A stretch of 63,370 bases of DNA from Nemertoderma westbladi (Eukaryota; Animalia; Xenacoelomorpha): the NCBI GenBank assembly GCA_032718475.1, contig JAUCBJ010009121.1:1-63370 (forward strand). The letters run 5' to 3'. Shown here one piece after another: positions 3,804 to 55,426 of the stretch. Position 1 is the first letter of the stretch, and every line of letters begins with the position of its first letter. A program made the position numbers and the translations under genes. Below the pieces are notes generated by a model that was not told the origin of the DNA, searched no databases, and worked only from the letters and a program-made list of their open reading frames with translations.

Positions 3804-3834
<31 letters not shown>

Positions 3835-32400: not shown

Positions 32401-32520
32401 TGCTCCTATTCCCTGTGCGTATTTGCTGTAGTAATACATAATTTAACCTATGTAACGCTGTATCGTTGCTAATATATATATATTTTTAGTGTATAGAAAA
32501 AAAATAATAATTCTACTCAC

Positions 32521-32710
32521 ATCCCAACTTTTCAGTGCTGGAATAACCATGGCAATCATATAATGTTCCAAAGCTTCTATCACTTGGCCGCCCCGACTGT
32601 CTAAGAATGTAAATGTAACTTCATTGGCCAATGATTGTTGGGTCACAGCTTTACCAGAAGTTCTCACGAAAACGTAGGCAGTACCAGTAAGCGGTTCCTG
32701 GGACCCATCA
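32521..32710 (-). CDS. DNAH5: DNAH5/DNAH8-like dynein heavy chain, 2nd exon in window
   Basis: tttttgcag|T GAT GGG TCC...: (S)DGSQEPLTGTAYVFVRTSGKAVTQQSLANEVTFTFLDSRGGQVIEALEHYMIAMVIPALKSWD; donor GAT|gtgagt; 190 nt = 1+63x3; resembles the recalled DNAH5 segment LTG...F.R....A.T......EV.F..LD...G.........IPAL. Confidence 0.9.
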
Positions 32711-32989
32711 CTGCAAAAATTTCAGATAATTAATAACTAAACGAAAACGTAGGCAGTACCAGTAAGCGGTTCCGGGACCCATCACTGCAAAAAGGTTCAG
32801 ATAATTAATAACTAAACGAAAACGTAGGCAGTACCAGTAAGCGGTTCCTGGGACCCATCACTGCAAAAAGGTTCAGATAATTAATAACTAAGTAGAAAAC
32901 GTAGGCAGTACCAGTAAGCGGTTCCTGGGACCCATCACTGCAAAAAGATTCAGATAATTAATAACTAAACGAAAACGTAGGCAGTACCA

Positions 32990-33900
32990 CCCAGTGAAAA
33001 GTGCGCAAGCGTATCGCAAGCGTGCAACGCAGGCGTATCTCATGTGATTCCCAAGAGTTATGGCCCGACCTTTACGCAAGCGATCTACTTGAGTAATGTC
33101 ACATAAATATCGCAACAACTTGCGTTCAGTCGCATAAAACTCACATGCGATTCACTTGCGACTTTCAAGCGTCATGGCGCATAAATATAGCAAAAATCTA
33201 CTGGTTGTGATTTTTGTGTAATATATTGAGAACTTTGTGACAGAAAATATGATAGTAGTTGATTATTCCACTACTGTTTGATACTAAACTATGGGCTTCT
33301 GTATCATCTGCCTGCTGCACTTACCTTACCTTACATTACATAAACATTACATTACACTCTCCAGACTTACAGTAGAACATTAGACATGCTGTATGAATCA
33401 ATACTAGAAATGGTTGGTTATATAGAGGATAATACAAATACATTAGAATAACCATGATACACTTTTAACTATTCCCTATAATTTTCAATTCTATAAAATA
33501 TATTAATATAATCTCTGAATTCGACAGCCATATTAGATAATTCGTATTCATCAATTTTATATTTTAAAACTATTTATTTCTTGATAGGCAACTTTATTTT
33601 AATTAATAATCTTCAGTGTAATTAAAAACATGCGATTCACATGGGAATTAACTCATGAGATTCTCATGGTGTAAAACATGCGTAAAATAAGCGTTAAATG
33701 AGGTGTGATTCGCATGCGATTTTCATGCACGGAATCACATGCGTAAAATAAGTTGTGAATCGCATGCGTGGAATCGCTTCCCTATTTTACATGTGAATCA
33801 CAAGCGAATCACAAGAGTATTATCGCTATTTATTGAGCCGCAATAAAAACGCATGACGCTTTAAAATCACTTGCGATACTCATGCGCATTTTTCACTGGG
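32990..33900. mobile_element. Non-autonomous CMC/EnSpm(CACTA)-like element, 911 bp, inserted in the acceptor array
   Basis: TIR CCCAGTGAAAA(G/A)TGCGCA; 2-bp TSD CA (32988-32989, 33901-33902) that restores the unit GTACCAGTAAG; subterminal short repeats (CGCATGCG, CACAAGCG). Confidence 0.82.
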
Positions 33901-36900
33901 CAGTAAGCGGTTCCTGGGACCCATCACTGCAAAAAGGTTCAGATAATTAATAACTAAGTAGAAAACGTAGGCAGTACCAGTAAGCGGTTCCTGGGACCCA
34001 TCACTGCAAAAAGGTCAGATAATTAATAACTAAACGAAAACGTAGGCAGTACCAGTAAGCGGTTCCTGGGACCCATCACTGCAAAAAGGTTCAGATAATT
34101 AATAACTAAGTAGAAAACGTAGGCAGTACCAGTAAGCGGTTCCTGGGACCCATCACTGCAAAAAGGTCAGATAATTAATAACTAAACGAAAACGTAGGCA
34201 GTACCAGTAAGCGGTTCCTGGGACCCATCACTGCAAAAAGATTCAGATAATTAATAACTAAACGAAAACGTAGGCAGTACCAGTAAGCGGTTCCTGGGAC
34301 CCATCACTGCAAAAAGGTGCAGATAATTAATACTTAAGTAGAAAACGTAGGCAGTACCAGTAAGCGGTTCCTGGGACCCATCACTGCAAAAAGATTCAGA
34401 TAATTAATAACTAAACGAAAACGTAGGCAGTACCAGTAAGCGGTTCCTGGGACCCATCACTGCAAAAAGGTTCAGATAATTAATAACTAAACGAAAACGT
34501 AGGCAGTACCAGTAAGCGGTTCCTGGGACCCATCACTGCAAAAAGGTTCAGATAATTAATAACTAAGTAGAAAACGTAGGCAGTACCAGTAAGCGGTTCC
34601 TGGGACCCATCACTGCAAAAAGGTTCAGATAATTAATAACTAAGTAGAAAACGTAGGCAGTACCAGTAAGCGGTTCCTGGGACCCATCACTGCAAAAGGT
34701 TCAGATAATTAATAACTAAACGAAAACGTAGGCAGTACCAGTAAGCGGTTCCTGGGACCCATCACTGCAAAAAGGTCAGATAATTAATAACTAAACGAAA
34801 ACGTAGGCAGTACCAGTAAGCGGTTCCTGGGACCCATCACTGCAAAAAGGTTCAGATAATTAATAACTAAACGAAAACGTAGGCAGTACCAGTAAGCGGT
34901 TCCTGGGACCCATCACTGCAAAAAGGTTCAGATAATTAATAACTAAACGAAAACGTAGGCAGTACCAGTAAGCGGTTCCTGGGACCCATCACTGCAAAAA
35001 GGTCAGATAATTAATAACTAAACGAAAACGTAGGCAGTACCAGTAAGCGGTTCCTGGGACCCATCACTGCAAAAAGGTTCAGATAATTAATAACTAAACG
35101 AAAACGTAGGCAGTACCAGTAAGCGGTTCCTGGGACCCATCACTGCAAAAAGGTTCAGATAATTAATAACTAAACGAAAACGTAGGCAGTACCAGTAAGC
35201 GGTTCCTGGGACCCATCACTGCAAAAAGGTTCAGATAATTAATAACTAAGTAGAAAACGTAGGCAGTACCAGTAAGCGGTTCCTGGGACCCATCACTGCA
35301 AAAAGGTTCAGATAATTAATAACTAAGTAGAAAACGTAGGCAGTACCAGTAAGCGGTTCCTGGGACCCATCACTGCAAAAAGGTTCAGATAATTAATAAC
35401 TAAACGAAAACGTAGGCAGTACCAGTAAGCGGTTCCTGGGACCCATCACTGCAAAAAGGTTCAGATAATTAATAACTAAACGAAAACGTAGGCAGTACCA
35501 GTAAGCGGTTCCTGGGACCCATCACTGCAAAAAGGTTCAGATAATTAATAACTAAACGAAAACGTAGGCAGTACCAGTAAGCGGTTCCTGGGACCCATCA
35601 CTGCAAAAAGGTTCAGATAATTAATAACTAAGTAGAAAACGTAGGCAGTACCAGTAAGCGGTTCCTGGGACCCATCACTGCAAAAAGGTTCAGATAATTA
35701 ATAACTAAGTAGAAAACGTAGGCAGTACCAGTAAGCGGTTCCTGGGACCCATCACTGCAAAAAGGTTCAGATAATTAATAACTAAACGAAAACGTAGGCA
35801 GTACCAGTAAGCGGTTCCTGGGACCCATCACTGCAAAAAGGTTCAGATAATTAATAACTAAGTAGAAAACGTAGGCAGTACCAGTAAGCGGTTCCTGGGA
35901 CCCATCACTGCAAAAAGGTTCAGATAATTAATAACTAAACGAAGACGTAGGCAGTACCAGTAAGCGGTTCCTGGGACCCATCACTGCAAAAAGGTCAGAT
36001 AATTAATAACTAAACGAAAACGTAGGCAGTACCAGTAAGCGGTTCCTGGGACCCATCACTGCAAAAAGGTCAGATAATTAATAACTAAACGAAAACGTAG
36101 GCAGTACCAGTAAGCGGTTCCTGGGACCCATCACTGCAAAAAGGTCAGATAATTAATAACTAAACGAAAACGTAGGCAGTACCAGTAAGCGGTTCCTGGG
36201 ACCCATCACTGCAAAAAGATTCAGATAATTAATAACTAAACGAAAACGTAGGCAGTACCAGTAAGCGGTTCCTGGGACCCATCACTGCAAAAAGGTTCAG
36301 ATAATTAATAACTAAACGAAAACGTAGGCAGTACCAGAAAGCGGTTCCTGGGACCCATCACTGCAAAAAGATTCAGATAATTAATAACTAAACGAAAACG
36401 TAGGCAGTACCATTAAGCGGTTCCTGGGACCCATCACTGCAAAAAGGTTCAGATAATTAATAACTAAACGAAAACGTAGGCAGTACCAGTAAGCGGTTCC
36501 TGGGACACATCACTGCAAAAAGGTCAGATAATTAATAACTAAACGAAAACGTAGGCAGTACCAGTAAGCGGTTCCTGGGACCCATCACTGCAAAAAGATT
36601 CAGATAATTAATAACTAAGTAGAAAACGTAGGCAGTACCAGTAAGCGGTTCCTGGGACCCATCACTGCAAAAAGGTCAGATAATTAATAACTAAGTAGAA
36701 AACGTAGGCAGTACCAGTAAGCGGTTCCTGGGACCCATCACTGCAAAAAGATTCAGATAATTAATAACTAAACGAAAACGTAGGCAGTACCAGTAAGCGG
36801 TTCCTGGGACCCATCACTGCAAAAAGGTTCAGATAATTAATAACTAAGTAGAAAACGTAGGCAGTACCAGTAAGCGGTTCCTGGGACCCATCACTGGAAA

Positions 36901-39900
36901 AAGGTCAGATAATTAATAACTAAACGAAAACGTAGGCAGTACCAGTAAGCGGTTCCTGGGACCCATCACTGCAAAAAGGTTCAGATAATTAATAACTAAG
37001 TAGAAAACGTAGGCAGTACCAGTAAGCGGTTCCTGGGACCCATCACTGCAAAAAGGTCAGATAATTAATAACTAAACGAAAACGTAGGCAGTACCAGTAA
37101 GCGGTTCCTGGGACCCATCACTGCAAAAAGATTCAGATAATTAATAACTAAACGAAAACGTAGGCAGTACCAGTAAGCGGTTCCTGGGACCCATCACTGC
37201 AAAAAGGTTCAGATAATTAATACTTAAGTAGAAAACGTAGGCAGTACCAGTAAGCGGTTCCTGGGACCCATCACTGCAAAAAGATTCAGATAATTAATAA
37301 CTAAACGAAAACGTAGGCAGTACCAGTAAGCGGTTCCTGGGACCCATCACTGCAAAAAGGTTCAGATAATTAATAACTAAACGAAAACGTAGGCAGTACC
37401 AGTAAGCGGTTCCTGGGACCCATCACTGCAAAAAGGTTCAGATAATTAATAACTAAACGAAAACGTAGGCAGTACCAGTAAGCGGTTCCTGGGACCCATC
37501 ACTGCAAAAAGGTTCAGATAATTAATAACTAAGTAGAAAACGTAGGCAGTACCAGTAAGCGGTTCCTGGGACCCATCACTGCAAAAAGGTTCAGATAATT
37601 AATAACTAAACGAAAACGTAGGCAGTACCAGTAAGCGGTTCCTGGGACCCATCACTGCAAAAAGGTTCAGATAATTAATAACTAAGTAGAAAACGTAGGC
37701 AGTACCAGTAAGCGGTTCCTGGGACCCATCACTGCAAAAAGGTTCAGATAATTAATAACTAAGTAGAAAACGTAGGCAGTACCAGTAAGCGGTTCCTGGG
37801 ACCCATCACTGCAAAAAGGTTCAGATAATTAATAACTAAACGAAAACGTAGGCAGTACCAGTAAGCGGTTCCTGGGACCCATCACTGCAAAAAGGTTCAG
37901 ATAATTAATAACTAAACGAAAACGTAGGCAGTACCAGTAAGCGGTTCCTGGGACCCATCACTGCAAAAAGGTTCAGATAATTAATAACTAAACGAAAACG
38001 TAGGCAGTACCAGTAAGCGGTTCCTGGGACCCATCACTGCAAAAAGGTTCAGATAATTAATAACTAAACGAAAACGTAGGCAGTACCAGTAAGCGGTTCC
38101 TGGGACCCATCACTGCAAAAAGGTTCAGATAATTAATAACTAAGTAGAAAACGTAGGCAGTACCAGTAAGCGGTTCCTGGGACCCATCACTGCAAAAAGG
38201 TTCAGATAATTAATAACTAAGTAGAAAACGTAGGCAGTACCAGTAAGCGGTTCCTGGGACCCATCACTGCAAAAAGGTTCAGATAATTAATAACTAAGTA
38301 GAAAACGTAGGCAGTACCAGTAAGCGGTTCCTGGGACCCATCACTGCAAAAAGGTTCAGATAATTAATAACTAAACGAAAACGTAGGCAGTACCAGTAAG
38401 CGGTTCCTGGGACCCATCACTGCAAAAAGGTTCAGATAATTAATAACTAAGTAGAAAACGTAGGCAGTACCAGTAAGCGGTTCCTGGGACCCATCACTGC
38501 AAAAAGGTTCAGATAATTAAGAACTAAACGAAAACGTAGGCAGTACCAGTAAGCGGTTCCTGGGACCCATCACTGCAAAAAGGTTCAGATAATTAAGAAC
38601 TAAACGAAAACGTAGGCAGTACCAGTAAGCGGTTCCTGGGACCCATCACTGCAAAAAGGTTCAGATAATTAATAACTAAACGAAGACGTAGGCAGTACCA
38701 GTAAGCGGTTCCTGGGACCCATCACTGCAAAAAGGTTCAGATAATTAATAACTAAACGAAAACGTAGGCAGTACCAGTAAGCGGTTCCTGGGACCCATCA
38801 CTGCAAAAAGATTCAGATAATTAATAACTAAACGAAAACGTAGGCAGTACCAGTAAGCGGTTCCTGGGACCCATCACTGCAAAAAGATTCAGATAATTAA
38901 TAACTAAACGAAAACGTAGGCAGTACCAGTAAGCGGTTCCTGGGACCCATCACTGCAAAAAGGTTCAGATAATTAATAACTAAACGAAAACGTAGGCAGT
39001 ACCAGTAAGCGGTTCCTGGGACCCATCACTGCAAAAAGATTCAGATAATTAATAACTAAACGAAAACGTAGGCAGTACCAGTAAGCGGTTCCTGGGACCC
39101 ATCACTGCAAAAAGATTCAGATAATTAATAACTAAGTAGAAAACGTAGGCAGTACCAGTAAGCGGTTCCTGGGACCCATCACTGCAAAAAGGTCAGATAA
39201 TTAATAACTAAGTAGAAAACGTAGGCAGTACCAGTAAGCGGTTCCTGGGACCCATCACTGCAAAAAGGTTCAGATAATTAATAACTAAACGAAAACGTAG
39301 GCAGTACCAGTAAGCGGTTCCTGGGACCCATCACTGCAAAAAGGTTCAGATAATTAATAACTAAACGAAAACGTAGGCAGTACCAGTAAGCGGTTCCTGG
39401 GACCCATCACTGCAAAAAGGTCAGATAATTAATAACTAAGTAGAAAACGTAGGCAGTACCAGTAAGCGGTTCCTGGGACCCATCACTGCAAAAAGGTTCA
39501 GATAATTAATAACTAAACGAAAACGTAGGCAGTACCAGTAAGCGGTTCCTGGGACCCATCACTGCAAAAAGGTTCAGATAATTAATAACTAAACGAAAAC
39601 GTAGGCAGTACCAGTAAGCGGTTCCTGGGACCCATCACTGCAAAAAGGTTCAGATAATTAATAACTAAACGAAAACGTAGGCAGTACCAGTAAGCGGTTC
39701 CTGGGACCCATCACTGCAAAAAGGTTCAGATAATTAATAACTAAACGAAAACGTAGGCAGTACCAGTAAGCGGTTCCTGGGACCCATCACTGCAAAAAGG
39801 TTCAGATAATTAATAACTAAACGAAAACGTAGGCAGTACCAGTAAGCGGTTCCTGGGACCCATCACTGCAAAAAGGTTCAGATAATTAATAACTAAACGA

Positions 39901-41578
39901 AAACGTAGGCAGTACCAGTAAGCGGTTCCTGGGACCCATCACTGCAAAAAGGTTCAGATAATTAATAACTAAACGAAAACGTAGGCAGTACCAGTAAGCG
40001 GTTCCTGGGACCCATCACTGCAAAAAGGTTCAGATAATTAATAACTAAACGAAAACGTAGGCAGTACCAGTAAGCGGTTCCTGGGACCCATCACTGCAAA
40101 AAGGTTCAGATAATTAATAACTAAACGAAAACGTAGGCAGTACCAGTAAGCGGTTCCTGGGACCCATCACTGCAAAAAGGTTCAGATAATTAATAACTAA
40201 ACGAAAACGTAGGCAGTACCAGTAAGCGGTTCCTGGGACCCATCACTGCAAAAAGGTTCAGATAATTAATAACTAAACGAAAACGTAGGCAGTACCAGTA
40301 AGCGGTTCCTGGGACCCATCACTGCAAAAAGGTTCAGATAATTAATAACTAAACGAAAACGTAGGCAGTACCAGTAAGCGGTTCCTGGGACCCATCACTG
40401 CAAAAAGGTTCAGATAATTAATAACTAAGTAGAAAACGTAGGCAGTACCAGTAAGCGGTTCCTGGGACCCATCACTGCAAAAAGGTTCAGATAATTAATA
40501 ACTAAACGAAAACGTAGGCAGTACCAGTAAGCGGTTCCTGGGACCCATCACTGCAAAAAGGTTCAGATAATTAATAACTAAACGAAAACGTAGGCAGTAC
40601 CAGTAAGCGGTTCCTGGGACCCATCACTGCAAAAAGGTTCAGATAATTAATAACTAAACGAAAACGTAGGCAGTACCAGTAAGCGGTTCCTGGGACCCAT
40701 CACTGCAAAAAGGTTCAGATAATTAATAACTAAACGAAAACGTAGGCAGTACCAGTAAGCGGTTCCTGGGACCCATCACTGCAAAAAGGTTCAGATAATT
40801 AATAACTAAACGAAAACGTAGGCAGTACCAGTAAGCGGTTCCTGGGACCCATCACTGCAAAAAGGTTCAGATAATTAATAACTAAGTAGAAAACGTAGGC
40901 AGTACCAGTAAGCGGTTCCTGGGACCCATCACTGCAAAAAGGTTCAGATAATTAATAACTAAGTAGAAAACGTAGGCAGTACCAGTAAGCGGTTCCTGGG
41001 ACCCATCACTGCAAAAAGGTTCAGATAATTAATAACTAAACGAAAACGTAGGCAGTACCAGTAAGCGGTTCCTGGGACCCATCACTGCAAAAAGGTTCAG
41101 ATAATTAATAACTAAGTACGAAAACGTAGGCAGTACCAGTAAGCGGTTCCTGGGACCCATCACTGCAAAAAGGTTCAGATAATTAATAACTAAACGAAAA
41201 CGTAGGCAGTACCAGTAAGCGGTTCCTGGGACCCATCACTGCAAAAAGGTTCAGATAATTAATAACTAAACGAAAACGTAGGCAGTACCAGTAAGCGGTT
41301 CCTGGGACCCATCACTGCAAAAAGGTTCAGATAATTAATAACTAAACGAAAACGTAGGCAGTACCAGTAAGCGGTTCCTGGGACCCATCACTGCAAAAAG
41401 GTTCAGATAATTAATAACTAAACGAAAACGTAGGCAGTACCAGTAAGCGGTTCCTGGGACCCATCACTGCAAAAAGGTTCAGATAATTAATAACTAAGTA
41501 GAAAACGTAGGCAGTACCAGTAAGCGGTTCCTGGGACCCATCACTGCAAAAAGGTTCAGATAATTAATAACTAAGTAG

Positions 41579-41678
41579 NNNNNNNNNNNNNNNNNNNNNN
41601 NNNNNNNNNNNNNNNNNNNNNNNNNNNNNNNNNNNNNNNNNNNNNNNNNNNNNNNNNNNNNNNNNNNNNNNNNNNNNN
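41579..41678. other. Assembly gap (100 N) inside the 76-bp array
   Basis: Run of exactly 100 N; true array length unknown. Confidence 0.99.
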
Positions 41679-44600
41679 ATAATTAATAACTAAACGAAAA
41701 CGTAGGCAGTACCAGTAAGCGGTTCCTGGGACCCATCACTGCAACAAGGTTCAGATAATTAATAACTAAGTAGAAAACGTAGGCAGTACCAGTAAGCGGT
41801 TCCTGGGACCCATCACTGCAAAAAGTTCAGATAATTAATAACTAAACGAAAACGTAGGCAGTACCAGTAAGCGGTTCCTGGGACCCATCACTGCAACAAG
41901 GTTCAGATAATTAATAACTAAGTAGAAAACGTAGGCAGTACCAGTAAGCGGTTCCTGGGACCCATCACTGCAAAAAGGTTCAGATAATTAATAACTAAAC
42001 GAAAACGTAGGCAGTACCAGTAAGCGATTCCTGGGACCCATCACTGCAAAAAGGTTCAGATAATTAATAACTAAGTAGAAAACGTAGGCAGTACCAGTAA
42101 GCGGTTCCTGGGACCCATCACTGCAAAAAGTTCAGATAATTAATAACTAAACGAAAACGTAGGCAGTACCAGTAAGCGGTTCCTGGGACCCATCACTGCA
42201 ACAAGGTTCAGATAATTAATAACTAAGTAGAAAACGTAGGCAGTACCAGTAAGCGGTTCCTGGGACCCATCACTGCAAAAAGGTTCAGATAATTAATAAC
42301 TAAGTAGAAAACGTAGGCAGTACCAGTAAGCGGTTCCTGGGACCCATCACTGCAAAAAGGTTCAGATAATTAATAACTAAACGAAAAAACGTAGGCAGTA
42401 CCAGTAAGCGGTTCCTGGGACCCATCACTGCAAAAAGGTTCAGATAATTAATAACTAAGTAGAAAACGTAGGCAGTACCAGTAAGCGGTTCCTGGGACCC
42501 ATCACTGCAAAAAGGTTCAGATAATTAATAACTAAACGAAAACGTAGGCAGTACCAGTAAGCGGTTCCTGGGACCCATCACTGCAAAAAGGTTCAGATAA
42601 TTAATAACTAAGTAGAAAACGTAGGCAGTACCAGTAAGCGGTTCCTGGGACCCATCACTGCAAAAAGGTTCAGATAATTAATAACTAAACGAAAACGTAG
42701 GCAGTACCAGTAAGCGGTTCCTGGGACCCATCACTGCAAAAAGGTTCAGATAATTAATAACTAAGTAGAAAACGTAGGCAGTACCAGTAAGCGGTTCCTG
42801 GGACCCATCACTGCAACAAGGTTCAGATAATTAATAACTAAACGAAAACGTAGGCAGTACCAGTAAGCGGTTCCTGGGACCCATCACTGCAAAAAGGTTC
42901 AGATAATTAATAACTAAGTAGAAAACGTAGGCAGTACCAGTAAGCGGTTCCTGGGACCCATCACTGCAACAAGGTTCAGATAATTAATAACTAAACGAAA
43001 ACGTAGGCAGTACCAGTAAGCGGTTCCTGGGACCCATCACTGCAAAAAGGTTCAGATAATTAATAACTAAACGAAAACGTAGGCAGTACCAGTAAGCGGT
43101 TCCTGGGACCCACCACTGCAAAAAGGTTCAGATAATTAATAACTAAACGAAAACGTAGGCAGTACCAGTAAGCGGTTCCTGGGACCCATCACTGCAAAAA
43201 GGTTCAGATAATTAATAACTAAGTAGAAAACGTAGGCAGTACCAGTAAGCGGTTCCTGGGACCCATCACTGCAAAAAGGTTCAGATAATTAATAACTAAA
43301 CGAAAACGTAGGCAGTACCAGTAAGCGATTCCTGGGACCCATCACTGAAAAAAGGTTCAGATAATTAATAACTAAGTAGAAAACGTAGGCAGTACCAGTA
43401 AGCGGTTCCTGGGCCCCATCACTGCAAAAAGGTTCAGATAATTAATAACTAAACGAAAACGTAGGCAGTACCAGTAAGCGGTTCCTGGGACCCATCACTG
43501 CAAAAGGTTCAGATAATTAATAACTAAACGAAAACGTAGGCAGTACCAGTAAGCGGTTCCTGGGACCCATCACTGCAAAAATTTCAGATAATTAATAAAT
43601 AAACGAAAACGTAGGCAGTACCAGTAAGCGGTTCCTGGGACCCATCACTGCAAAAAGGTTCAGATAATTAATAACTAAACGAAAACGTAGGCAGTACCAG
43701 TAAGCGGTTCCTGGGACCCATCACTGCAAAAAGGTTCAGATAATTAACAACTAAACGAAAACGTAGGCAGTACCAGTAAGCGATTCCTGGGACCCATCAC
43801 TGCAAAAAGGTTCAGATAATTAATAACTAAGTAGAAAACGTAGGCAGTACCAGTAAGCGGTTCCTGGGACCCATCACTGCAAAAAGTTCAGATAATTAAT
43901 AACTAAACGAAAACGTAGGCAGTACCAGTAAGCGGTTCCTGGGACCCATCACTGCAACAAGGTTCAGATAATTAATAACTAAGTAGAAAACGTAGGCAGT
44001 ACCAGTAAGCGGTTCCTGGGACCCATCACTGCAAAAAGGTTCAGATAATTAATAACTAAGTAGAAAACGTAGGCAGTACCAGTAAGCGGTTCCTGGGACC
44101 CATCACTGAAAAAAGGTTCAGATAATTAATAACTAAACGAAAACGTAGGCAGTACCAGTAAGCGGTTCCTGGGACCCATCACTGCAAAAAGGTTCAGATA
44201 ATTAATAACTAAGTAGAAAACGTAGGCAGTACCAGTAAGCGGTTCCTGGGACCCATCACTGCAAAAAGGTTCAGATAATTAATAACTAAACGAAAACGTA
44301 GGCAGTACCAGTAAGCGGTTCCTGGGACCCATCACTGCAAAAAGGTTCAGATAATTAATAACTAAGTAGAAAACGTAGGCAGTACCAGTAAGCGGTTCCT
44401 GGGACCCATCACTGCAAAAAGGTTCAGATAATTAATAACTAAGTAGAAAACGTAGGCAGTACCAGTAAGCGGTTCCTGGCACCCATCACTGCAAAAAGGT
44501 TCAGATAATTAATAACTAAGTAGAAAACGTAGGCAGTTCCAGTAAGCGGTTCCTGGGACCCATCACTGCAAAAAGGTTCAGATAATTAATAACTAAACGA

Positions 44601-47600
44601 AAACGTAGGCAGTACCAGTAAGCGGTTCCTGGGACCCATCACTGCAAAAAGGTTCAGATAATTAATAACTAAACGAAAACGTAGGCAGTACCAGTAAGCG
44701 GTTCCTGGGACCCATCACTGCAAAAAGGTCCGATAATTAATAACTAAACGAAAACGTAGGCAGTACCAGTAAGCGGTTCCTGGGACCCATCACTGCAAAA
44801 AGGTTCAGATAATTAATAACTAAGTAGAAAACGTAGGCAGTACCAGTAAGCGGTTCCTGGGACCCATCACTGCAAAAAGGTTCAGATAATTAATAACTAA
44901 ACGAAAACGTAGGCAGTACCAGTAAGCGGTTCCTGGGACCCATCACTGCAAAAAGGTTCAGATAATTAATAACTAAACGAAAACGTAGGCAGTACCAGTA
45001 AGCGGTTCCTGGGACCCATCACTGCAAAAAGGTTCAGATAATTAATAACTAAACGAAAACGTAGGCAGTACCAGTAAGCGGTTCCTGGGACCCATCACTG
45101 CAAAAAGGTTCAGATAATTAATAACTAAACGAAAACGTAGGCAGTACCAGTAAGCGGTTCCTGGGACCCATCACTGCAAAAAGGTCAGATAATTAATAAC
45201 TAAACGAAAACGTAGGCAGTACCAGTAAGCGGTTCCTGGGACCCATCACTGCAAAAAGGTCAGATAATTAATAACTAAACGAAAACGTAGGCAGTACCAG
45301 TAAGCGGTTCCTGGGACCCATCACTGCGAAAAGGTTCAGATAATTAATAACTAAGTAGAAAACGTAGGCAGTACCAGTAAGCGGTTCCGGGGACCCATCA
45401 CTGCAAAAGGTTCAGATAATTAATAACTAAACGAAAACGTAGGCAGTACCAGTAAGCGGTTCCTGGGACCCATCACTGCAAAAAGGTTCAGATAATTAAT
45501 AACTAAGTAGAAAACGTAGGCAGTACCAGTAAGCGGTTCCTGGGACCCATCACTGCAAAAAGGTCAGATAATTAATAACTAAACGAAAACGTAGGCAGTA
45601 CCAGTAAGCGGTTCCTGGGACCCATCACTGCAAAAAGGTCAGATAATTAATAACTAAACGAAAACGTAGGCAGTACCAGTAAGCGGTTCCTGGGACCCAT
45701 CACTGCAAAAAGGTCCGATAATTAATAACTAAACGAAAACGTAGGCAGTACCAGTAAGCGGTTCCTGGGACCCATCACTGCAAAAAGGTTCAGATAATTA
45801 ATAACTAAGTAGAAAACGTAGGCAGTACCAGTAAGCGGTTCCTGGGACCCATCACTGCAAAAAGGTTCAGATAATTAATAACTAAACGAAAACGTAGGCA
45901 GTACCAGTAAGCGGTTCCTGGGACCCATCACTGCAAAAAGGTTCAGATAATTAATAACTAAACGAAAACGTAGGCAGTACCAGTAAGCGGTTCCTGGGAC
46001 CCATCACTGCAAAAAGGTCAGATAATTAATAACTAAACGAAAACGTAGGCAGTACCAGTAAGCGGTTCCTGGGACCCATCACTGCAAAAAGGTTCAGATA
46101 ATTAATAACTAAGTAGAAAACGTAGGCAGTACCAGTAAGCGGTTCCTGGGACCCATCACTGCAAAAAGGTTCAGATAATTAATAACTAAACGAAAACGTA
46201 GGCAGTACCAGTAAGCGGTTCCTGGGACCCATCACTGCAAAAAGGTTCAGATAATTAATAACTAAACGAAAACGTAGGCAGTACCAGTAAGCGGTTCCTG
46301 GGACCCACCACTGCAAAAAGGTTCAGATAATTAATAACTAAACGAAAACGTAGGCAGTACCAGTAAGCGGTTCCTGGGACCCATCACTGCAAAAAGGTCA
46401 GATAATTAATAACTAAACGAAAACGTAGGCAGTACCAGTAAGCGGTTCCTGGGACCCATCACTGCAAAAAGGTCAGATAATTAATAACTAAACGAAAACG
46501 TAGGCAGTACCAGTAAGCGGTTCCTGGGACCCATCACTGCAAAAAGGTTCAGATAATTAATAACTAAACGAAAACGTAGGCAGTACCAGTAAGCGGTTCC
46601 TGGGACCCATCACTGCAAAAAGGTTCAGATAATTAATAACTAAACGAAAACGTAGGCAGTACCAGTAAGCGGTTCCTGGGACCCATCACTGCAAAAAGGT
46701 TCAGATAATTAATAACTAAACGAAAACGTAGGCAGTACCAGTAAGCGGTTCCTGGGACCCATCACTGCAAAAAGGTTCAGATAATTAATAACTAAGTAGA
46801 AAACGTAGGCAGTACCAGTAAGCGGTTCCTGGGACCCATCACTGCAAAAAGGTTCAGATAATTAATAACTAAACGAAAACGTAGGCAGTACCAGTAAGCG
46901 GTTCCTGGGACCCATCACTGCAAAAAGGTTCAGATAATTAATAACTAAGTAGAAAACGTAGGCAGTACCAGTAAGCGGTTCCTGGGACCCATCACTGCAA
47001 AAAGGTTCAGATAATTAATAACTAAACGAAAACGTAGGCAGTACCAGTAAGCGGTTCCTGGGACCCATCACTGCAAAAAGTTCAGATAATTAATAACTAA
47101 GTAGAAAACGTAGGCAGTACCAGTAAGCGGTTCCTGGGACCCATCACTGCAAAAAGGTTCAGATAATTAATAACTAAACGAAAACGTAGGCAGTACCAGT
47201 AAGCGGTTCCTGGGACCCATCACTGCAAAAAGTTCAGATAATTAATAACTAAGTAGAAAACGTAGGCAGTACCAGTAAGCGGTTCCTGGGACCCATCACT
47301 GCAAAAAGGTTCAGATAATTAATAACTAAACGAAAACGTAGGCAGTACCAGTAAGCGGTTCCTGGGACCCATCACTGCAAAAAGGTCAGATAATTAATAA
47401 CTAAGTAGAAAACGTAGGCAGTACCAGTAAGCGGTTCCTGGGACCCATCACTGCAAAAAGGTTCAGATAATTAATAACTAAACGAAAACGTAGGCAGTAC
47501 CAGTAAGCGGTTCCTGGGACCCATCACTGCAAAAGGTTCAGATAATTAATAACTAAACGAAAACGTAGGCAGTACCAGTAAGCGGTTCCTGGGACCCATC

Positions 47601-50600
47601 ACTGCAAAAAGTTCAGATAATTAATAACTAAGTAGAAAACGTAGGCAGTACCAGTAAGCGGTTCCTGGGACCCATCACTGCAAAAAGGTTCAGATAATTA
47701 ATAACTAAGTAGAAAACGTAGGCAGTACCAGTAAGCGGTTCCTGGGACCCATCACTGCAAAAAGTTCAGATAATTAATAACTAAGTAGAAAACGTAGGCA
47801 GTACCAGTAAGCGGTTCCTGGGACCCATCACTGCAAAAAGGTTCAGATAATTAATAACTAAGTAGAAAACGTAGGCAGTACCAGTAAGCGGTTCCTGGGA
47901 CCCATCACTGCAAAAAGGTTCAGATAATTAATAACTAAACGAAAACGTAGGCAGTACCAGTAAGCGGTTCCTGGGACCCATCACTGCAAAAAGGTTCAGA
48001 TAATTAATAACTAAACGAAAACGTAGGCAGTACCAGTAAGCGGTTCCTGGGACCCATCACTGCAAAAAGGTTCAGATAATTAATAACTAAACGAAAACGT
48101 AGGCAGTACCAGTAAGCGGTTCCTGGGACCCATCACTGCAAAAAGGTTCAGATAATTAATAACTAAACGAAAACGTAGGCAGTACCAGTAAGCGGTTCCT
48201 GGGACCCATCACTGCAAAAAGGTTCAGATAATTAATAACTAAACGAAAACGTAGGCAGTACCAGTAAGCGGTTCCTGGGACCCATCACTGCAAAAAGGTC
48301 AGATAATTAATAACTAAGTAGAAAACGTAGGCAGTACCAGTAAGCGGTTCCTGGGACCCATCACTGCAAAAAGGTTCAGATAATTAATAACTAAACGAAA
48401 ACGTAGGCAGTACCAGTAAGCGGTTCCTGGGACCCATCACTGCAAAAAGGTTCAGATAATTAATAACTAAACGAAAACGTAGGCAGTACCAGTAAGCGGT
48501 TCCTGGGACCCATCACTGCAAAAAGGTTCAGATAATTAATAACTAAACGAAAACGTAGGCAGTACCAGTAAGCGGTTCCTGGGACCCATCACTGCAAAAA
48601 GGTTCAGATAATTAAGAACTAAACGAAAACGTAGGCAGTACCAGTAAGCGGTTCCTGGGACCCATCACTGCAAAAAGGTTCAGATAATTAATAACTAAGT
48701 AGAAAACGTAGGCAGTACCAGTAAGCGGTTCCTGGGACCCATCACTGCAAAAAGGTTCAGATAATTAATAACTAAACGAAAACGTAGGCAGTACCAGTAA
48801 GCGGTTCCTGGGACCCATCACTGCAAAAAGGTTCAGATAATTAATAACTAAGTAGAAAACGTAGGCAGTACCAGTAAGCGGTTCCTGGGACCCATCACTG
48901 CAAAAAGGTTCAGATAATTCATAACTAAACGAAAACGTAGGCAGTACCAGTAAGCGGTTCCTGGGACCCATCACTGCAAAAAGGTTCAGATAATTAATAA
49001 CTAAACGAAAACGTAGGCAGTACCAGTAAGCGGTTCCTGGGACCCATCACTGCAAAAAGGTTCAGATAATTAATAACTAAACGAAAACGTAGGCAGTACC
49101 AGTAAGCGGTTCCTGGGACCCATCACTGCAAAAAGGTCAGATAATTAATAACTAAGTAGAAAACGTAGGCAGTACCAGTAAGCGGTTCCTGGGACCCATC
49201 ACTGCAAAAAGGTTCGGATAATTAATAACTAAACGAAAACGTAGGCAGTACCAGTAAGCGGTTCCTGGGACCCATCACTGCAAAAAGGTTCAGATAATTA
49301 ATAACTAAACGAAAACGTAGGCAGTACCAGTAAGCGGTTCCTGGGACCCATCACTGCAAAAAGGTTCAGATAATTAATAACTAAGTAGAAAACGTAGGCA
49401 GTACCAGTAAGCGGTTCCTGGGACCCATCACTGCAAAAAGGTTCAGATAATTAATAACTAAACGAAAACGTAGGCAGTACCAGTAAGCGGTTCCTGGGAC
49501 CCATCACTGCAAAAAGGTTCAGATAATTAATAACTAAGTAGAAAACGTAGGCAGTACCAGTAAGCGGTTCCTGGGACCCATCACTGCAAAAAGGTTCAGA
49601 TAATTAATAACTAAACGAAAACGTAGGCAGTACCAGTAAGCGGTTCCTGGGACCCATCACTGCAAAAAGGTTCAGATAATTAATAACTAAACGAAAACGT
49701 AGGCAGTACCAGTAAGCGGTTCCTGGGACCCATCACTGCAAAAAGGTTCAGATAATTAATAACTAAACGAAAACGTAGGCAGTACCAGTAAGCGGTTCCT
49801 GGGACCCATCACTGCAAAAAGGTCAGATAATTAATAACTAAACGAAAACGTAGGCAGTACCAGTAAGCGGTTCCTGGGACCCATCACTGCAAAAAGGTTC
49901 AGATAATTAATAACTAAGTAGAATACGTAGGCAGTTCCAGTAAGCGGTTCCTGGGACCCATCACTGCAAAAAGGTTCAGATAATTAATAACTAAGTAGAA
50001 AACGTAGGCAGTACCAGTAAGCGGTTCCTGGGACCCATCACTGCAAAAAGGTTCAGATAATTAATAACTAAACGAAAACGTAGGCAGTACCAGTAAGCGG
50101 TTCCTGGGACCCATCACTGCAAAAAGGTTCAGATAATTAATAACTAAGTAGAAAACGTAGGCAGTACCAGTAAGCGGTTCCTGGGACCCATCACTGCAAA
50201 AAGGTTCAGATAATTAATAACTAAACGAAAACGTAGGCAGTACCAGTAAGCGGTTCCTGGGACCCATCACTGCAAAAAGGTTCAGATAATTAATAACTAA
50301 GTAGAAAACGTAGGCAGTACCAGTAAGCGGTTCCTGGGACCCATCACTGCAAAAAGGTTCAGATAATTAATAACTAAACGAAAACGTAGGCAGTACCAGT
50401 AAGCGGTTCCTGGGACCCATCACTGCAAAAAGGTTCAGATAATTAATAACTAAGTAGAAAACGTAGGCAGTACCAGTAAGCGGTTCCTGGGACCCATCAC
50501 TGCAAAAAGGTTCAGATAATTAATAACTAAACGAAAACGTAGGCAGTACCAGTAAGCGGTTCCTGGGACCCATCACTGCAAAAAGGTTCAGATAATTAAT

Positions 50601-51389
50601 AACTAAGTAGAAAACGTAGGCAGTACCAGTAAGCGGTTCCTGGGACCCATCACTGCAAAAAGGTTCAGATAATTAATAACTAAACGAAAACGTAGGCAGT
50701 ACCAGTAAGCGGTTCCTGGGACCCATCACTGCAAAAAGGTTCAGATAATTAATAACTAAACGAAAACGTAGGCAGTACCAGTAAGCGGTTCCTGGGACCC
50801 ATCACTGCAAAAAGGTTCAGATAATTAATAACTAAACGAAAACGTAGGCAGTACCAGTAAGCGGTTCCTGGGACCCATCACTGCAAAAAGGTCAGATAAT
50901 TAATAACTAAACGAAAACGTAGGCAGTACCAGTAAGCGGTTCCTGGGACCCATCACTGCAAAAAGGTTCAGATAATTAATAACTAAGTAGAATACGTAGG
51001 CAGTTCCAGTAAGCGGTTCCTGGGACCCATCACTGCAAAAAGGTTCAGATAATTAATAACTAAGTAGAAAACGTAGGCAGTACCAGTAAGCGGTTCCTGG
51101 GACCCATCACTGCAAAAAGTTCAGATAATTAATAACTAAGTAGAAAATTGACCACTATAATAATTATTATATAATATAATTATAATAATTTCTAGAATAA
51201 TTACTGTCTATTAAAGTCTATAAATTTATTTTGGGAATCATATGTGGCGGATGCAGTAGAAAGGACACATGGAGAAAAGTGGAAAAAAGTGATGTTTTGA
51301 GAAAAAAAAAATTTAAAGTTTTCTGATTATTTAGATTAGTAAAGTAACTATAAAGTATAATATTTCTAGATTAAAATTTTACAACCTTT

Positions 51390-51580
51390 CCAGCCGCCAG
51401 ATTTACAGAAACCAGGTCGCATCTCTGCCTTGCATCCTTAAGTGGTAGCTAAATGAGTACGGGAGTTTCCTCTGGGGTGTAAAGTTCTGGGGGGACCGCA
51501 CTGGAAATAAGTCGTCAGACTTTGTGCGTAATCCCTGGCCTAGTGGCCGCAGAAAATTTACTTTTACTTTACTTTACTAT
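51390..51580 (+). mobile_element. 5'-truncated SINE with a Nin/Deu-type conserved central domain and (CTTTA)n tail
   Basis: CCAGGTCGCATCTCTGCCTTGCATCCTTAAGTGGTAGCTAAATGAGTAC resembles the recalled core GTCGACTCAGCCTTCATCCTT...TAAAATGAGTAC; ends TTTACTTTTACTTTACTTTAC. Confidence 0.55.
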
Positions 51581-51759
51581 ACCTAACTTCATGTCATAAA
51601 ATGTTACCAGATGTTTTCCAAGTGGTTTCATTTACAATTTTTCATTTTATTTCCGGCTTCTGGCCCCGGTGGCTATTAATTAGCATTAATATTAAAATAG
51701 GGATAAAATATGAACAATACACAAGTGCATATAGTACGATAAAATATAAGTAGTAGAAA

Positions 51760-53830
51760 TAATAGTTATAATTTAAGAAAATAAGTAAATTTGTTAAATC
51801 CATGTGCTGCTATGCAATGCGTAGTTAAACATTGAAAACGAGATGGAGCGGATGTGTCATTTATTTTACATAGAATTTTTTTACACGCTCGTGGGGCATT
51901 TCGTTTCAGTCAATAAGGTACTGGAGGTTGTTGTTACTGAAACTTAGTCTCTATTCCCTCTCCCCTCAAAAAAGTCGTTATTGCAGCATGTTTGATTTGA
52001 AAGCTTGCATGGCTGTTCAAAATGGAATAACAATACATGGCCTGGAATTCATGTTTAAATGGTGTTGTTGCTTCACAAGTTCTTCGTCTTGCGCCATTGA
52101 TGACGGCTTTTATGTTATGTTATGGGTCGATGCTAGGTTTGTTAGAGATGGTAGATCTTCCTTCCATGCCAATAGACTGTACTCAGACATGTATGTATTA
52201 TCTCGTGTTCTCGCGGTACAGTATGATGTGATAGTATTGTTGAGAATAAGTGTAATACTTTAGTATTATGGCTATTTAATATGTTGTATGTGACCCGACA
52301 TTTGTTGTATGCTACTATTTGTTGAACAGTTTCACTGTTGAAGAGCTTCCATAAGACATTGTTAGATATGTAATTACTAACTCCAAGTATTGTGCGCATG
52401 GCTTTTCGGATTGTTCTTTCTAGGGGTCTCAATAGGGCAATCTCAATAGGTGAAGATCCATAAAAAATTAATGGGAGACATACAATTTCCCTTATGAGAG
52501 ATGTAACGGCTAGTGGGACATCATAGGACGAATTCCGATCTTCCGAATTCCCAATCGGAATTCCGATCCGACGAATTTAAGGTCCGATTATTTAGAGCAG
52601 CAGTAGTTCCAGTACTCCTCTATGGGAGTCCATGCTGGGCTCTAACTGCTGAGGATACCAAATATCTGGATGGCACATTCACAAGAATGCTACGCCGGGT
52701 TCATTGTGTCAAATACAATGCACACATCTCCAACCAGACACTATATATCATTGGAGGTGTCTCATTGGTTCCCCTAAGCTTGACACTAGAACAAAATCGC
52801 CTCCGATTTGCAGGACATTGCTTTCGCCGTGAGGACCAGCCAGTGCATAATCTTGTACTTTGGTAGCCTCATGGAGTGAATAAGTATGGTGGACAGCCCA
52901 TGACTTTCTTGAGACGCATCTTAAAGGACACTGGCCTTGAAGATGCGGATGATCTAGCAAATGTCATGGGTGATAGGGAGTTGTGGCGGTGCAATTTTGT
53001 TGACAAGCCGGCACAGCATTCTTAAAAATGCAGCTGTAATGCAGCATGCCGATCCTAGTAGTAGTAGTAGTAGTAATAGGACGAAAGTGCTTTTGATTTT
53101 GTTTGGGAAACATTTATCCAGCACTTTTTCGTGAAGTGGTCTCGTAGGTTGGATGGGGTAGATGGTAAGGGTAGCCCCAAATATTTAAGTTTTGCCTCAT
53201 GTATTAGGTTTTTCCCAGGTTCAACTTGAATTGATTCTTGATTTCCTGTCGGTTGTGAAGAGGCAACAATGTAATGGGATTTGTGTACAAGTTCAAGCAT
53301 AATCCATTATTCTTGAAATAGTCGGTGCACAGACGTAGTACTGTATTCTGATGAGATCAGATTTTAAATAGGCCAATATTAATATGTCATCTGCAAAACT
53401 AAAGGCTGGGTAGGACTCATCCGCAACATGTAGGCCCAGTTTGGCAGCATACATATAGGGATGCAAATAGGTCTGCTAAGTAAAAATTAAAAAGCCAACC
53501 AGAGAGTACTCCACCTTGGCGTATGCCACGATGGAGTGGTATCATCTTCGTATGGATGAGGTTTCCAATCTTTATTGAGACTTTTGATTTGCTGCAAAGC
53601 AAAACAAAGCGATCAGTTGTGGACTCAGGTTTGTTTCTTCGAGTTTGCTGAACATAACATTGTGTTTAATAGTATCAAATGCGGCCGATAGATCGAGTGA
53701 TACGACATGGACTGGTGATGACTCTTTGTTGAAAAATTCAATGAGTTTACTTGCTGCTGTTACAGTAGATATGGTACTTCACTGTGCATCCCATGTTTAT
53801 TTGCCATTTGCAGGTGGCTTTGTTTAATTG
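51760..53830 (-). mobile_element. Degenerate non-LTR retrotransposon (RT domain with frameshifts and stops), interrupted by an RTE copy; boundaries approximate
   Basis: Minus strand: DLSAAFDTI, GIRQGGVLSGWLFNFY, FADD, KYLG, then past the insertion PLIFYGS and RKAMRTILGV. Confidence 0.8.
52533..53075 (+). mobile_element. 5'-truncated RTE LINE copy with a premature stop and (TAG)n tail
   Basis: Near-identical to the reverse complement of about 12962-13442; TGG TAG replaces W-Q; 10-bp TSD ATAGGACGAA at 52523-52532 and 53076-53085. Confidence 0.92.
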
Positions 53831-53919
53831 GTTTCAGTTCCTCAATGATTGTGTGCTCCCAAATGTTCCTGTTTCATGATTGTGTGCTCATATGTAATTT
53901 TCTCATGTTTGTCAGAGTC

Positions 53920-54255
53920 TAGTATGACTGTACGTCTGTTGTGTGTCAGTCTGACTGTTGTCTGTAAAATATAAGAAAGCACACCAATTTACTTAAATTT
54001 TCGACTTGGGGGGTTTTCCTTAGCGGCGATTGCATTTCCGACGTCAGTTCTCATGTTTGACAGCATTTAGTCTGTCTGTCAGTCTATTTGTATATCTGTC
54101 TGTTGTCACTCAAAATATAAGAAAGCCCTCTACGTGGCTAATATTTTAACTATATATGGTATTTCTGGCCTGTAATTTCATTTTTGATTTCAGTTTTCAT
54201 GTTTGGATGAATTTATTCTGTTTGTTGCATCTATACTAATTATCCAAATATATAA
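53920..54255. repeat. Old, diverged tandem of about 130-140 bp (2-3 units; AAAATATAAGAAAGC and CAGTT(C/T)TCATGTTTG recur)
   Basis: AAAATATAAGAAAGC at about 53966 and 54112; a related unit lies at about 55140-55250. Confidence 0.55.
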
Positions 54256-54293
54256 CTAAAGAAATTACAAAAGAAATAACTTTACCTAAAAAT

Positions 54294-54352
54294 TTTAATT
54301 ACTATTGAATAGTTCTAGAACTTTTTAATTACTATTGAATAGTTCTAGAACT
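54294..54352. repeat. Perfect 30-bp tandem duplication (TTTTAATTACTATTGAATAGTTCTAGAACT)
   Basis: Directly visible, two copies. Confidence 0.9.
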
Positions 54353-54549
54353 TTACATGTAGTTACCAAACTATACCAATCGGCAGGGAAAATAAGGCAA
54401 TTAAGTTTATAGAATAAATTTGAAATCGGTCACACTAAGTCCTGAGATAATGGACAATGGTGCAAAACATGAGCCGAGTCCTGGGCTGAAGTGGAGTCGC
54501 ACCGACACACACGTAATTCCCGAGGCGTTCTGCTCCACCGCCCTCTTAA

Positions 54550-55426
54550 GGGGGGGGGGGGGGGGGGGGTATACCCCCCCATAAACCTTTTTTTAAAATG
54601 GCTGTAAATTAGTGTTAAATGATAATATTGCTATTTTGTCATGGTCAACCACTGTATGGAAGGCCAAATAGCCTCCCCCTAGCGGCTGGCGGCGGAATTA
54701 AAGATTTCACTAAAATTGCTACTACTAGTCCCTCAATTTTGGTCCAAATTTCTTGAAACCAACTTTGTTGGACTCAGCGTGATCGACTCTACAAAAGTTA
54801 TCTTATAGAATTTTTAATTAGCCATTTTTATTTTAATTAATTAATTTAATTAATTAATTATCATATTTTTAATTAAAATTGGCTAATTAGAAAAAATGAT
54901 AATATTTATTAAAATTCCATAAGATATCTTTTAAAGCGCTACCAAAGCTCGTTCGAATGAGCCATAAACGAAGAAAATTGGTTAAAAAATGACGGAGGAG
55001 TAGTAATTTGAAAATGAAAAATGTCATTCCGAGAAAATGCCCTTCAAAGTTTAAACCATCCCACCAAAATTGGCTGTCTGTGTTCTGGTTGGTTAATTAT
55101 TTCTGGCACGAAGGTTGCATACCAACGAGCTAAAATGTTCATTACGGGGGTTTTCGGGGTCGCTGATTTCATTTCCGATGTCAGTTTTAATTTTTGGTGG
55201 AATCTAGTCTATCTGTCTGTATGTCGGTCTTCTGTCTTTCTTACAATTTGACGGACAGACCGTCATACGGAAAAACAGTGATAACCCGAGAACTGAAATA
55301 GATCTCACTAAGCGGTTTTCAGATTTGTATTCCTCATTAAATTCTGCTTTAGATGAAATAAAGAAACAACAATTTGAAAATTTTACCTGAGGGGGGGGGG
55401 GGGGGGGGGTATACCCCCCCTCCCCC
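54550..55426. mobile_element. Non-autonomous TTAA-targeting DNA transposon with GG...CC termini (Kolobok-like)
   Basis: TTAA at 54546-54549 and 55427-55430; both ends carry Gn-TATA-C7; purine start and pyrimidine end fit Kolobok better than piggyBac. Confidence 0.75.

Follow-up and report, generated by a model that had tools for sequence, protein, structure and literature searches.

When an exon is preceded by hundreds of copies of its own 3' splice site, how would the one site that leads into the whole exon be chosen? This question is raised by an intron of a dynein gene in the 63,370-nt stretch of DNA analyzed here (the window). If correct mRNA is made from this gene, the spliceosome passes over 228 intact acceptors in 18 kb for a slightly weaker one that is backed by a donor. 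The locus would then offer a clean natural experiment that pits exon definition against first-come-first-served splicing, its own controls being 225 far decoys, three near decoys and a transposon carrying strong donors.

The dynein gene and its array

The relevant features, in the direction of transcription of the dynein gene, are as follows.

55837..55959, minus strand: exon E1, the upstream dynein exon, 123 nt, ending ATAAG with donor GTGGGT; a phase-2 intron follows
32711..55836, minus strand: the array-bearing intron, at least 23.1 kb and 76% tandem DNA, with the array at its 3' end
41679..51143, minus strand: the part of the array transcribed first, 124 decoy acceptors, 51109 to 41738
41579..41678, no strand: 100-N assembly gap (N run) inside the array
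33901..41578, minus strand: the middle part of the array, 101 decoy acceptors, 41543 to 33926
32990..33900, no strand: 911-bp non-coding inverted-repeat element inside one unit, with ~30-bp terminal inverted repeats CCCAGTG...CACTGGG
32744..32989, minus strand: the three near decoys, exon starts 32937, 32860 and 32784
32711..32743, minus strand: the true acceptor with the rare tract variant, AG at 32712-32711
32521..32710, minus strand: exon E2, the true exon, 190 nt, DNAH5-like, donor GAT/GTGAGT at 32520
17713..17896, minus strand: exon E3, downstream, 184 nt, donor GTGGGT
2588..2780, minus strand: exon E4, downstream, 193 nt, donor GTTAGA, start of the DHC_N1 domain (PF08385, E 6.9e-14)

Judged by its sequence matches, the host gene is a DNAH5/8-type outer-arm dynein heavy chain gene, and is DNAH5-like. 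Joined, E1 to E4 give 229 codons free of stops, and do so only via the acceptor at 32710; the product is collinear with 18 homologues that extend into the N-terminal part (27-41% identity, BLASTP), and E2 aligns to residues 118-178 of human DNAH5 from its own second residue onward. Human DNAH5 was the top match for E4 (4e-17) and the sole match for E2 (0.002) in a search of the PDB. Searched alone, E1 gave no match, aligning within the joined E1-E4 comparison, and a homologue search with E2 alone gave 21 candidates, none at E <= 10; no close relative was found, the best dynein exon matches reaching 69-79%. A search for RNA sequencing runs with 18 words sampled from 32490-32745 listed none, a result that speaks neither for nor against expression. 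An earlier sequence-only reading had taken the repeated unit to be the dynein gene's own acceptor and exon start, and the DNAH5 match of E2, the open four-exon frame and the collinearity bear this out. A nested mannosidase gene is 41-52% identical to the 120 matches listed, which are spread over many animal groups, and its stop codon is the point where a second array has been seeded.

A scan for the 14-base junction motif, allowing up to two mismatches, located 229 minus-strand acceptors whose exon starts run from 51109 to 32710, in agreement with the roughly 230 copies and 18 kb of that reading; given the 100-N gap within the array, 229 is a minimum. The sequenced array bases number 17,465, spread over ~18 kb, and blastn matches of one unit to the window were confined to 32668-51139. 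What is repeated is the 3' splice site together with the first 43-45 bases of the 190-nt exon at 32710-32521. The complete units (n = 226) comprise 149 of a 76-type (31 nt of intron and 45 nt of exon) and 77 of a 77-type (34 nt and 43 nt). The claim that each unit holds an intact acceptor plus the first 45 exon nucleotides thus stands for the acceptor, whose AG is kept in 229/229 copies, and for the exon part of the 76-type, but fails for the 77-type with its 43 nt.

Divergence among the complete units averages 0.44 differences per unit (0.6%), with 35 distinct unit sequences in the array and a run of 12 identical units. Inner units are homogenized and variants are locally clustered, while the array ends deviate, the tract variant of the first acceptor occurring in 8/229 copies and that of the last in 2/229. 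The latter two copies, 43572 and 32710, confirm that the functional copy has a rare tract with a single similar copy elsewhere. A TTTTC microhomology is found at both unit ends, in the intron and again at exon base 39-43, and the first array copy retains a unique intron flank with TTTTC. Tandem arrays make up 77% of the window, and arrays unrelated to this one occupy 57-93% of all three window introns.

Decoys and the true splice site

A stronger true acceptor as the cause of its choice was rejected, since its tract has 7 pyrimidines in 12 positions while 221/229 copies have 8 or more, mostly 8 in the decoys. Nor could the rare tract be taken as the sign of a better site, given that it has fewer pyrimidines and is present in one decoy. 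A more exposed true acceptor was rejected as well: with one 160-nt fold per site at 5 sites, the predicted mean unpaired value was 0.34 for the true acceptor versus 0.49-0.69 in four decoy contexts.

Downstream of the acceptors, read-through meets a stop after 228/228 decoys, within 31-202 nt and at 46 nt in 147/228, as had been proposed for the upstream copies, and it was also correctly seen that the last copy alone (AG 32712-32711) continues to the GTGAGT donor at 32520. Used with the true donor, the near decoys at 32937, 32860 and 32784 would give exons of 417, 340 and 264 nt, each with stops. The sequence GT[AG]AG is absent within 300 nt of 225/229 acceptors and present for the last four, and G at +5 occurs in 4/4 real window donors and in 0/6 distinct GT sites of the two main unit types. 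Inside the unit, CTG/GTACTG is found in 223/229 copies and has a donor score of 5/9 versus 6/9 for the true donor, by a rough comparison with the donor consensus rather than a trained model, so that 26-nt micro-exons could still form. Their in-frame inclusion was rejected, as adding one to four of them brought in stops in 4/4 cases. Considered as poison exons, all decoys carry stops, and candidate donors for them are the weak CTG/GTACTG and the strong sites of the 911-bp element.

That element is flanked by a 2-bp TG duplication and divides the acceptors into 225 + 4, so that only three decoys adjoin the true site. On the sense strand it contains strong donor-like sites, including AAG/GTAAGT at 33324, and its near-perfect donors, at 33370-33324, lie 556-602 nt behind decoy 33926. 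There are three poly(A) signal matches across the array span, all within the element; the 76-type unit was searched for the signal and has none.

Coding use of the decoys was rejected on the grounds of the stops and of neutral drift, with 8 of 11 distinct substitutions in decoy exon parts altering the amino acid against a random expectation of 74%. Selection on the decoy AGs was rejected because the chance of all of them being untouched is ~0.29 (20 distinct variants, 33 intron positions). Each main unit type has three AGs, followed by GA, TT and TG, and neither type contains AG/GT or AG/GC. Rogers-type intron gain by tandem duplication was rejected, given that the duplicated exon part is without the proto-splice AG/GT.

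Probable origin and tolerance of the array

We think it likely that this boundary array of at least 229 copies was born of a short duplication, was amplified by the repeat instability of the neighboring introns, and is tolerated because only its last copies have a downstream donor, recognition being predicted to act through the exon. The array is most likely a tolerated by-product, given the share of tandem arrays in the window and the neutral drift of the decoy exon parts. Exon definition is probably what selects the last copy, since the repeat breaks off right at a donor-like GTGAG and none of the decoys has a donor; with all decoys upstream and leading to stops, exon definition would be the natural explanation. 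The donor-like TTC/GTGAGA lies at +43 in E2, the exact cut point of the repeat unit, which ends at, or two bases into, the GTGAGA. Were the unit three bases longer each copy would be a 43-nt frameshifting exon, and the surviving cut point thus probably permitted the expansion. The testable rule that this suggests is that boundary repeats grow large only if the unit stops short of the donor.

The array may have begun with a 77-bp duplication between the two TTTTC microhomologies that left the last copy whole, after which slippage and unequal exchange would have amplified and homogenized the unit, the second junction of the 76-type spreading, and a transposon would have inserted four acceptors from the array end. 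As the array is transcribed, U2AF/U2 may probe the decoys without committing, given that no 5' splice site lies within exon range of them, and the donor 190 nt away would define the true site. Leak would go mainly to the three near decoys and be cleared by NMD.

Several observations count against exon definition as the explanation. The true acceptor's tract is no stronger than those of the decoys and its predicted exposure is lower, and the near-perfect donors of the inserted element lie behind a decoy. In the cited passages, introns of the fly dynein gene kl-3 are apparently spliced once an acceptor becomes available (PMC11207136), and in early globin experiments with duplicated splice sites the proximal copy was used in one study and the opposite was seen in another (PMC1557585). 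Moreover, since published arrays are far smaller, tolerance of the present one is an extrapolation.

Given that 228 AG-intact decoys are made before the true site, with a tract at least equal to its own, and that skipping of E2 would break the frame, the array might instead cripple splicing, the gene being a recent hypomorphic or null allele, or a gene copy, with exons still undecayed; at 0.6% divergence the array seems young, and the intact frame therefore carries little weight. We regard this as unlikely, since none of the four exons or eight splice sites is damaged and time has elapsed for two junction types, the local spread of variants and the insertion of a transposon. Loss of a DNAH5-class dynein, moreover, leaves cilia and sperm immotile. 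Little probability attaches to the proposal that the transcript share captured by decoys, or by decoy-to-transposon poison exons, rises with copy number, such that the satellite tunes outer-arm dynein dose, and hence ciliary or sperm motility, allele by allele. Less probable still is a selected rheostat, in which copy number sets the share lost to NMD, or U2AF/U2 is soaked up, or transcription is delayed as proposed for the giant fly dynein introns. Every decoy would be poison if used and no AG has been lost, and satellite-filled fly dynein introns are described as requiring a special expression programme in the cited part of PMC6508621. On the other hand, the untouched AGs are expected by chance, unrelated arrays take up 57-93% of each of the three introns, and the amphioxus repeats called mirages lie in genes unrelated to one another, the cited passages reporting no role for them (PMC3087553, PMC3902484). 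The copy-number-tunable NMD or splicing-factor sink of the sequence-only reading found no support, given a described repeat class and a window full of unrelated arrays.

It is highly improbable that assembly error produced the array or the greater part of its length. The 100-N gap, the 12 identical units in a row and a longest repeated run of unit types of 11, barely above the maximum of 10 in 200 shuffles, would all fit such an origin, but the 35 distinct unit sequences speak against it, as does the clustering of shared substitutions (mean nearest-carrier distance 32 units versus 60 when shuffled, P = 0.012), 11/13 of which occur on a single side of the gap. Nor do the array parts flanking the gap represent overlapping copies, with 18 types upstream only, 11 downstream only and 6 common; the target duplication at the insertion is clean, and the exons are collinear across the gap. 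The chance is slimmer again that the exon start has moved to a GAG site at exon +48, with 16 residues dropped and the decoys bypassed. This AG, found nowhere but in the true exon, is preceded by a run of pyrimidines and leaves the frame open; however, G at -3 is uncommon in acceptors, the decoys have a better TAG in the corresponding position, and the dropped residues 41-55 are conserved, with a mean identity of 34% (17 homologues) versus 26% in the exon remainder. Least probable of all is stepwise or recursive splicing, in which decoys would be used and then re-spliced to restore the junction. The intron, at least 23 kb, is near the size range described for recursive splicing, but the sites described require AG followed by GT (cited part of PMC8911335), and having no AG/GT or AG/GC the unit contradicts this route; E1 joined to a decoy reads AAG/TG, which is no donor, and one to four added micro-exons lead to stops.

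Comparison with known boundary repeats

On its sequence features, the dynein array belongs to a known repeat class, the amphioxus "mirage", made of tandem copies of an intron/exon boundary: the unit spans the boundary and is repeated head to tail, the end copy is authentic with an open frame, the AGs are kept and the interior is homogenized. With the class already known, what is gained is scale and not kind, the array being roughly ten times the size of the largest published case that we found. In practice, gene annotation and read mapping can both go astray at boundary arrays.

In the cited passages (PMC3087553, PMC3902484), mirages are reported in the globin genes BflGb6 and BflGb9, Adh3, troponin C and PGBD5, and are reported not to disturb splicing. 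As in the BflGb6 mirage, the intron 3' end and exon start stand in tandem within the upstream intron; the unit size is within the mirage range (10-72 bp in Adh3, 150-160 bp in the globins), and, as in mirages, splice signals are kept, inner units homogenized and end units deviant. The dynein array differs in extending over 18 kb with no fewer than 229 copies, where BflGb6 haplotypes have 3 and 6 units, in its 0.6% divergence where amphioxus mirages show 81-100% identity, and in the transposon inside it, unlike the amphioxus mirages as described there. For the latter the passages report that splicing is normal and that array length is polymorphic. If the dose-tuning reading were true, the dynein array would be a functional mirage.

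Like the Drosophila Y-loop genes kl-3 and kl-5, the host is an axonemal dynein heavy chain gene with introns of mostly tandem DNA, but the kl-3/kl-5 introns as described consist of megabases of simple repeats (AATAT, AAGAC) with no splice-site copies, against 15-23 kb here (PMC6508621, PMC11207136, PMC12965833). Megabase satellite introns were not found in the window, whose introns measure 14.6-23.1 kb.

In man, the 68-bp junction duplication CBS 844ins68 is spliced at the distal site, with one decoy at a short distance compared with 228 decoys and 18 kb of transcription in the dynein gene (cited part of PMC2630376). Human donor-side VNTRs are described in F7 intron 7 (5-9 x 37 bp), the 6-16 gene (25 pseudo-sites), CBS intron 13 (15-20), lamin B2 and PDGF, and there, as here, the end unit of a minisatellite spans an exon boundary, the dynein copies being ~10x as many (cited part of PMC1557585). 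In that account the exon-adjoining site is used, and 6-16 and CBS intron 13 also use two pseudo-sites, which by analogy suggests that some leak may occur at the near decoys of the dynein array. The human repeats are donors, with the true site transcribed first, whereas those of the dynein gene are acceptors, with the true site last (PMC1557585).

The array and its host gene

The array lies in a DNAH5-like dynein gene on the minus strand, between the first two of the four exons in the window (E1-E4) and reaching into the second.

Exons of the dynein gene in the window, all with GT-AG borders
E1: 55959-55837, minus strand
E2: 32710-32521, minus strand
E3: 17896-17713, minus strand
E4: 2780-2588, minus strand; Pfam DHC_N1

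Joined, E1-E4 give 229 codons without a stop. Among solved structures the best match of E4 is human DNAH5, which is also the only match of E2 (residues 118-178); E1 searched alone gave no match. Of the 150 proteins that a representative search gave, 18 have alignments starting no later than query residue 45 (27-41% identity). E2 matches DNAH5, these 18 homologues are collinear across the E1/E2 junction, and the 15 residues that the repeat unit encodes are conserved (mean identity 34%, 17 rows); on these grounds we identify the unit as the acceptor and exon start of the dynein gene itself. The sequence-only reading, which had claimed this, is borne out by the homologue alignment.

Tandem Repeats Finder reported an array with a period of 75-76 bp, in two parts (32666-32989 and 33901-51139). 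Splitting the minus strand at each junction motif yielded 229 acceptors, whose exon starts run from 51109 down to 32710; every one has its AG. This agrees with the earlier claim of about 230 copies of a dynein 3' splice site and exon start. The last is the true site; the other 228 are referred to here as decoys. The unit was found nowhere else in the window. The 226 complete units are nearest either to a 76-bp type (149 units) or to a 77-bp type (77 units), with 143 identical to their own type and a mean difference of 0.6%. Another two are interrupted: a 100-N gap (41579-41678) falls in one, and the other has taken up a 911-bp insertion (32990-33900) that is bounded by terminal inverted repeats and accompanied by a TG duplication. 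The 17,465 bases of sequenced array DNA are a lower bound, since the gap lies inside the array.

Acceptors by array segment
Before the gap: 124, minus strand
Between gap and insertion: 101, minus strand
After the insertion: 4, minus strand

Internal evidence favours a real array. There are 35 distinct unit sequences; carriers of 13 shared substitutions lie on average 32 units from the nearest other carrier, versus 60 in shuffles (P = 0.012), and 11 of the 13 are limited to one side of the gap, across which the unit-type spectra also differ. The insertion, too, has a clean target duplication. A longest-run test for higher-order repeats is neutral: it gave 11, hardly above the shuffled maximum of 10.

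The inserted element, single-copy in the window, has CCC-starting inverted ends, a 2-bp target duplication, five sense-strand GT[AG]AG sites and an acceptor-like site at 33403; we take it to resemble non-autonomous EnSpm/CACTA-type elements of animals.

Origin of the unit and its surroundings

Ahead of the first copy the unique intron sequence closes with TTTTC and then TACTTAG; TTTTC recurs as exon bases 39-43, where GTGAG comes next. A duplication between these two microhomologies would yield exactly the 77-bp unit and leave the last copy whole, and we infer such an origin; the 76-bp unit would represent a second junction that takes in two additional exon bases and lacks three intron bases. 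In the first and the last acceptor the tract is a base shorter than in the bulk, and a single substitution separates the two; their variants are present in 8 and 2 of the 229 copies, respectively. These deviating ends would fit end units that escape homogenisation, as reported for the amphioxus BflGb6 mirage, a minisatellite of tandem intron/exon boundary copies (PMC3087553). Tandem arrays make up 77% of the window and 57-93% of each intron, which suggests a strong regional tendency to amplify local sequence as the context of the array's origin.

Their units, of about 15-17, 21, 29, 31, 34, 42 and 76 bp, are unrelated, and some arrays are nested. An array with a 25-29-bp unit, 13.6 kb long (17951-31599), fills 93% of the E2-E3 intron and ends 54 nt before E3, sparing its acceptor. 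Between it and E2 lies a 293-codon stop-free stretch (31591-32469, plus strand) that resembles a decayed retroelement tail and has no Pfam match. A second array with a 76-bp unit (15674-16889; 16 copies, 98% matches) shares no sequence relationship with the acceptor array and directly adjoins a retrotransposon piece. Three truncated non-LTR retrotransposon pieces (12955-13900, 16936-17207 and 52574-53060) are 96-97% identical to each other and encode a reverse transcriptase C-terminus (weak PF00078 match); the longest (12955-13900) sits inside the array of the 31-bp unit and shows what looks like a 7-bp target duplication. A short, recurring palindrome-like motif (G run, TATA, C run; partly TTAA-bounded) is possibly a transposon end or footprint.

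Occurrences of the palindrome-like motif
about 31920-31960
about 54545-54585
about 55390-55430
about 3804-3834

Antisense within the E3-E4 intron is an intronless endo-alpha-mannosidase gene (MANEA-like, PF16317, 433 aa; 4873-6174, plus strand), in which an in-frame 21-bp unit at the C-terminus and stop codon has been amplified about 126 times (6140-8793). The first unit has an arginine codon, 112 of 122 matched units carry a stop (106 TGA, 6 TAA), and beyond the array the frame stays open for a few more codons before it meets another stop. Judged from sequence, this is a second case of coding-boundary seeding without breaking the protein.

Choice of the true acceptor

The proposal that any upstream copy soon leads to a stop held for all 228 decoys (read-through stops in 31-202 nt). 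Splicing the three decoys nearest the true site (exon starts 32937, 32860 and 32784) to the true donor would create exons of 417, 340 and 264 nt, none of them free of stops; a frameshift results if E2 is skipped. Of 11 distinct substitutions in decoy exon parts, 8 change the amino acid, versus 74% expected at random, thus giving no sign of coding use, which the stops also speak against.

How, then, could the true site win? A stronger acceptor was rejected, since the true tract has 7 of 12 pyrimidines whereas 221 of the 229 copies have at least 8; so was greater exposure, as folding predicts more pairing for the true tract than in the four decoy contexts that were folded. Recursive sites are reported to require AG followed by GT (PMC8911335), and AG|GT and AG|GC are absent from both main unit types, so that re-splicing was likewise rejected. 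The contrast lies in the donors: 225 of the 229 acceptors have no GT[AG]AG within 300 nt, and G at +5 occurs in all four real donors but in none of six GT sites of the main units. The true exon contains a donor-like GTGAGA, and the repeat unit stops either right at it or two bases inside it, which leaves every decoy without it. We infer that the true site would be set apart by its downstream donor rather than by acceptor strength, exposure or re-splicing.

Exon definition is an established model of splicing; applied here, it would have the 225 far decoys ignored and any leak fall on the three near ones. Several points count against this reading. A crude match to the donor consensus gives 5 of 9 for an internal GT site that 223 of the 229 copies carry, and 6 of 9 for the true donor; the inserted element places near-perfect donors 556-602 nt behind the decoy at 33926. 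Introns of fly kl-3 appear, as reported, to be spliced once an acceptor is available (PMC11207136), and early experiments on duplicated globin splice sites are reported to have given opposite results (PMC1557585).

The host gene probably tolerates the array. That the array cripples the gene is unlikely. Still more improbable is a sink that titrates NMD or a splicing factor by copy number: every copy keeps its AG, and the chance of finding no mutated AG is about 0.29, hence nothing to suggest that decoy activity is selected in either direction.

Comparison with known systems

Besides BflGb6, mirages are reported in amphioxus Adh, troponin C and PGBD5 (PMC3902484), and the amphioxus mirages are described as leaving splicing undisturbed (PMC3087553, PMC3902484). 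Of six mirage features, two, normal splicing and length polymorphism, are reported for amphioxus, and the other four are found here: a boundary-spanning unit, an authentic end copy with open frame, kept splice signals, and homogenised inner versus deviating end units. Our search of open-access papers, mostly by titles and abstract beginnings, found no boundary array with hundreds of copies. In CBS 844ins68 one junction is duplicated once, and splicing uses the distal site (PMC2630376, where the text says 'donor' and the title of the paper it cites says 3' splice site). Reported donor-side arrays have up to 25 pseudo-sites, and two of them leak to two pseudo-sites (PMC1557585). Fly kl-3 and kl-5 share satellite-filled dynein introns with the present gene but not the splice-site unit (PMC6508621, PMC12965833). 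We regard the array as real and as a very large example of an already known kind of repeat, and its value is as a natural test of exon definition.
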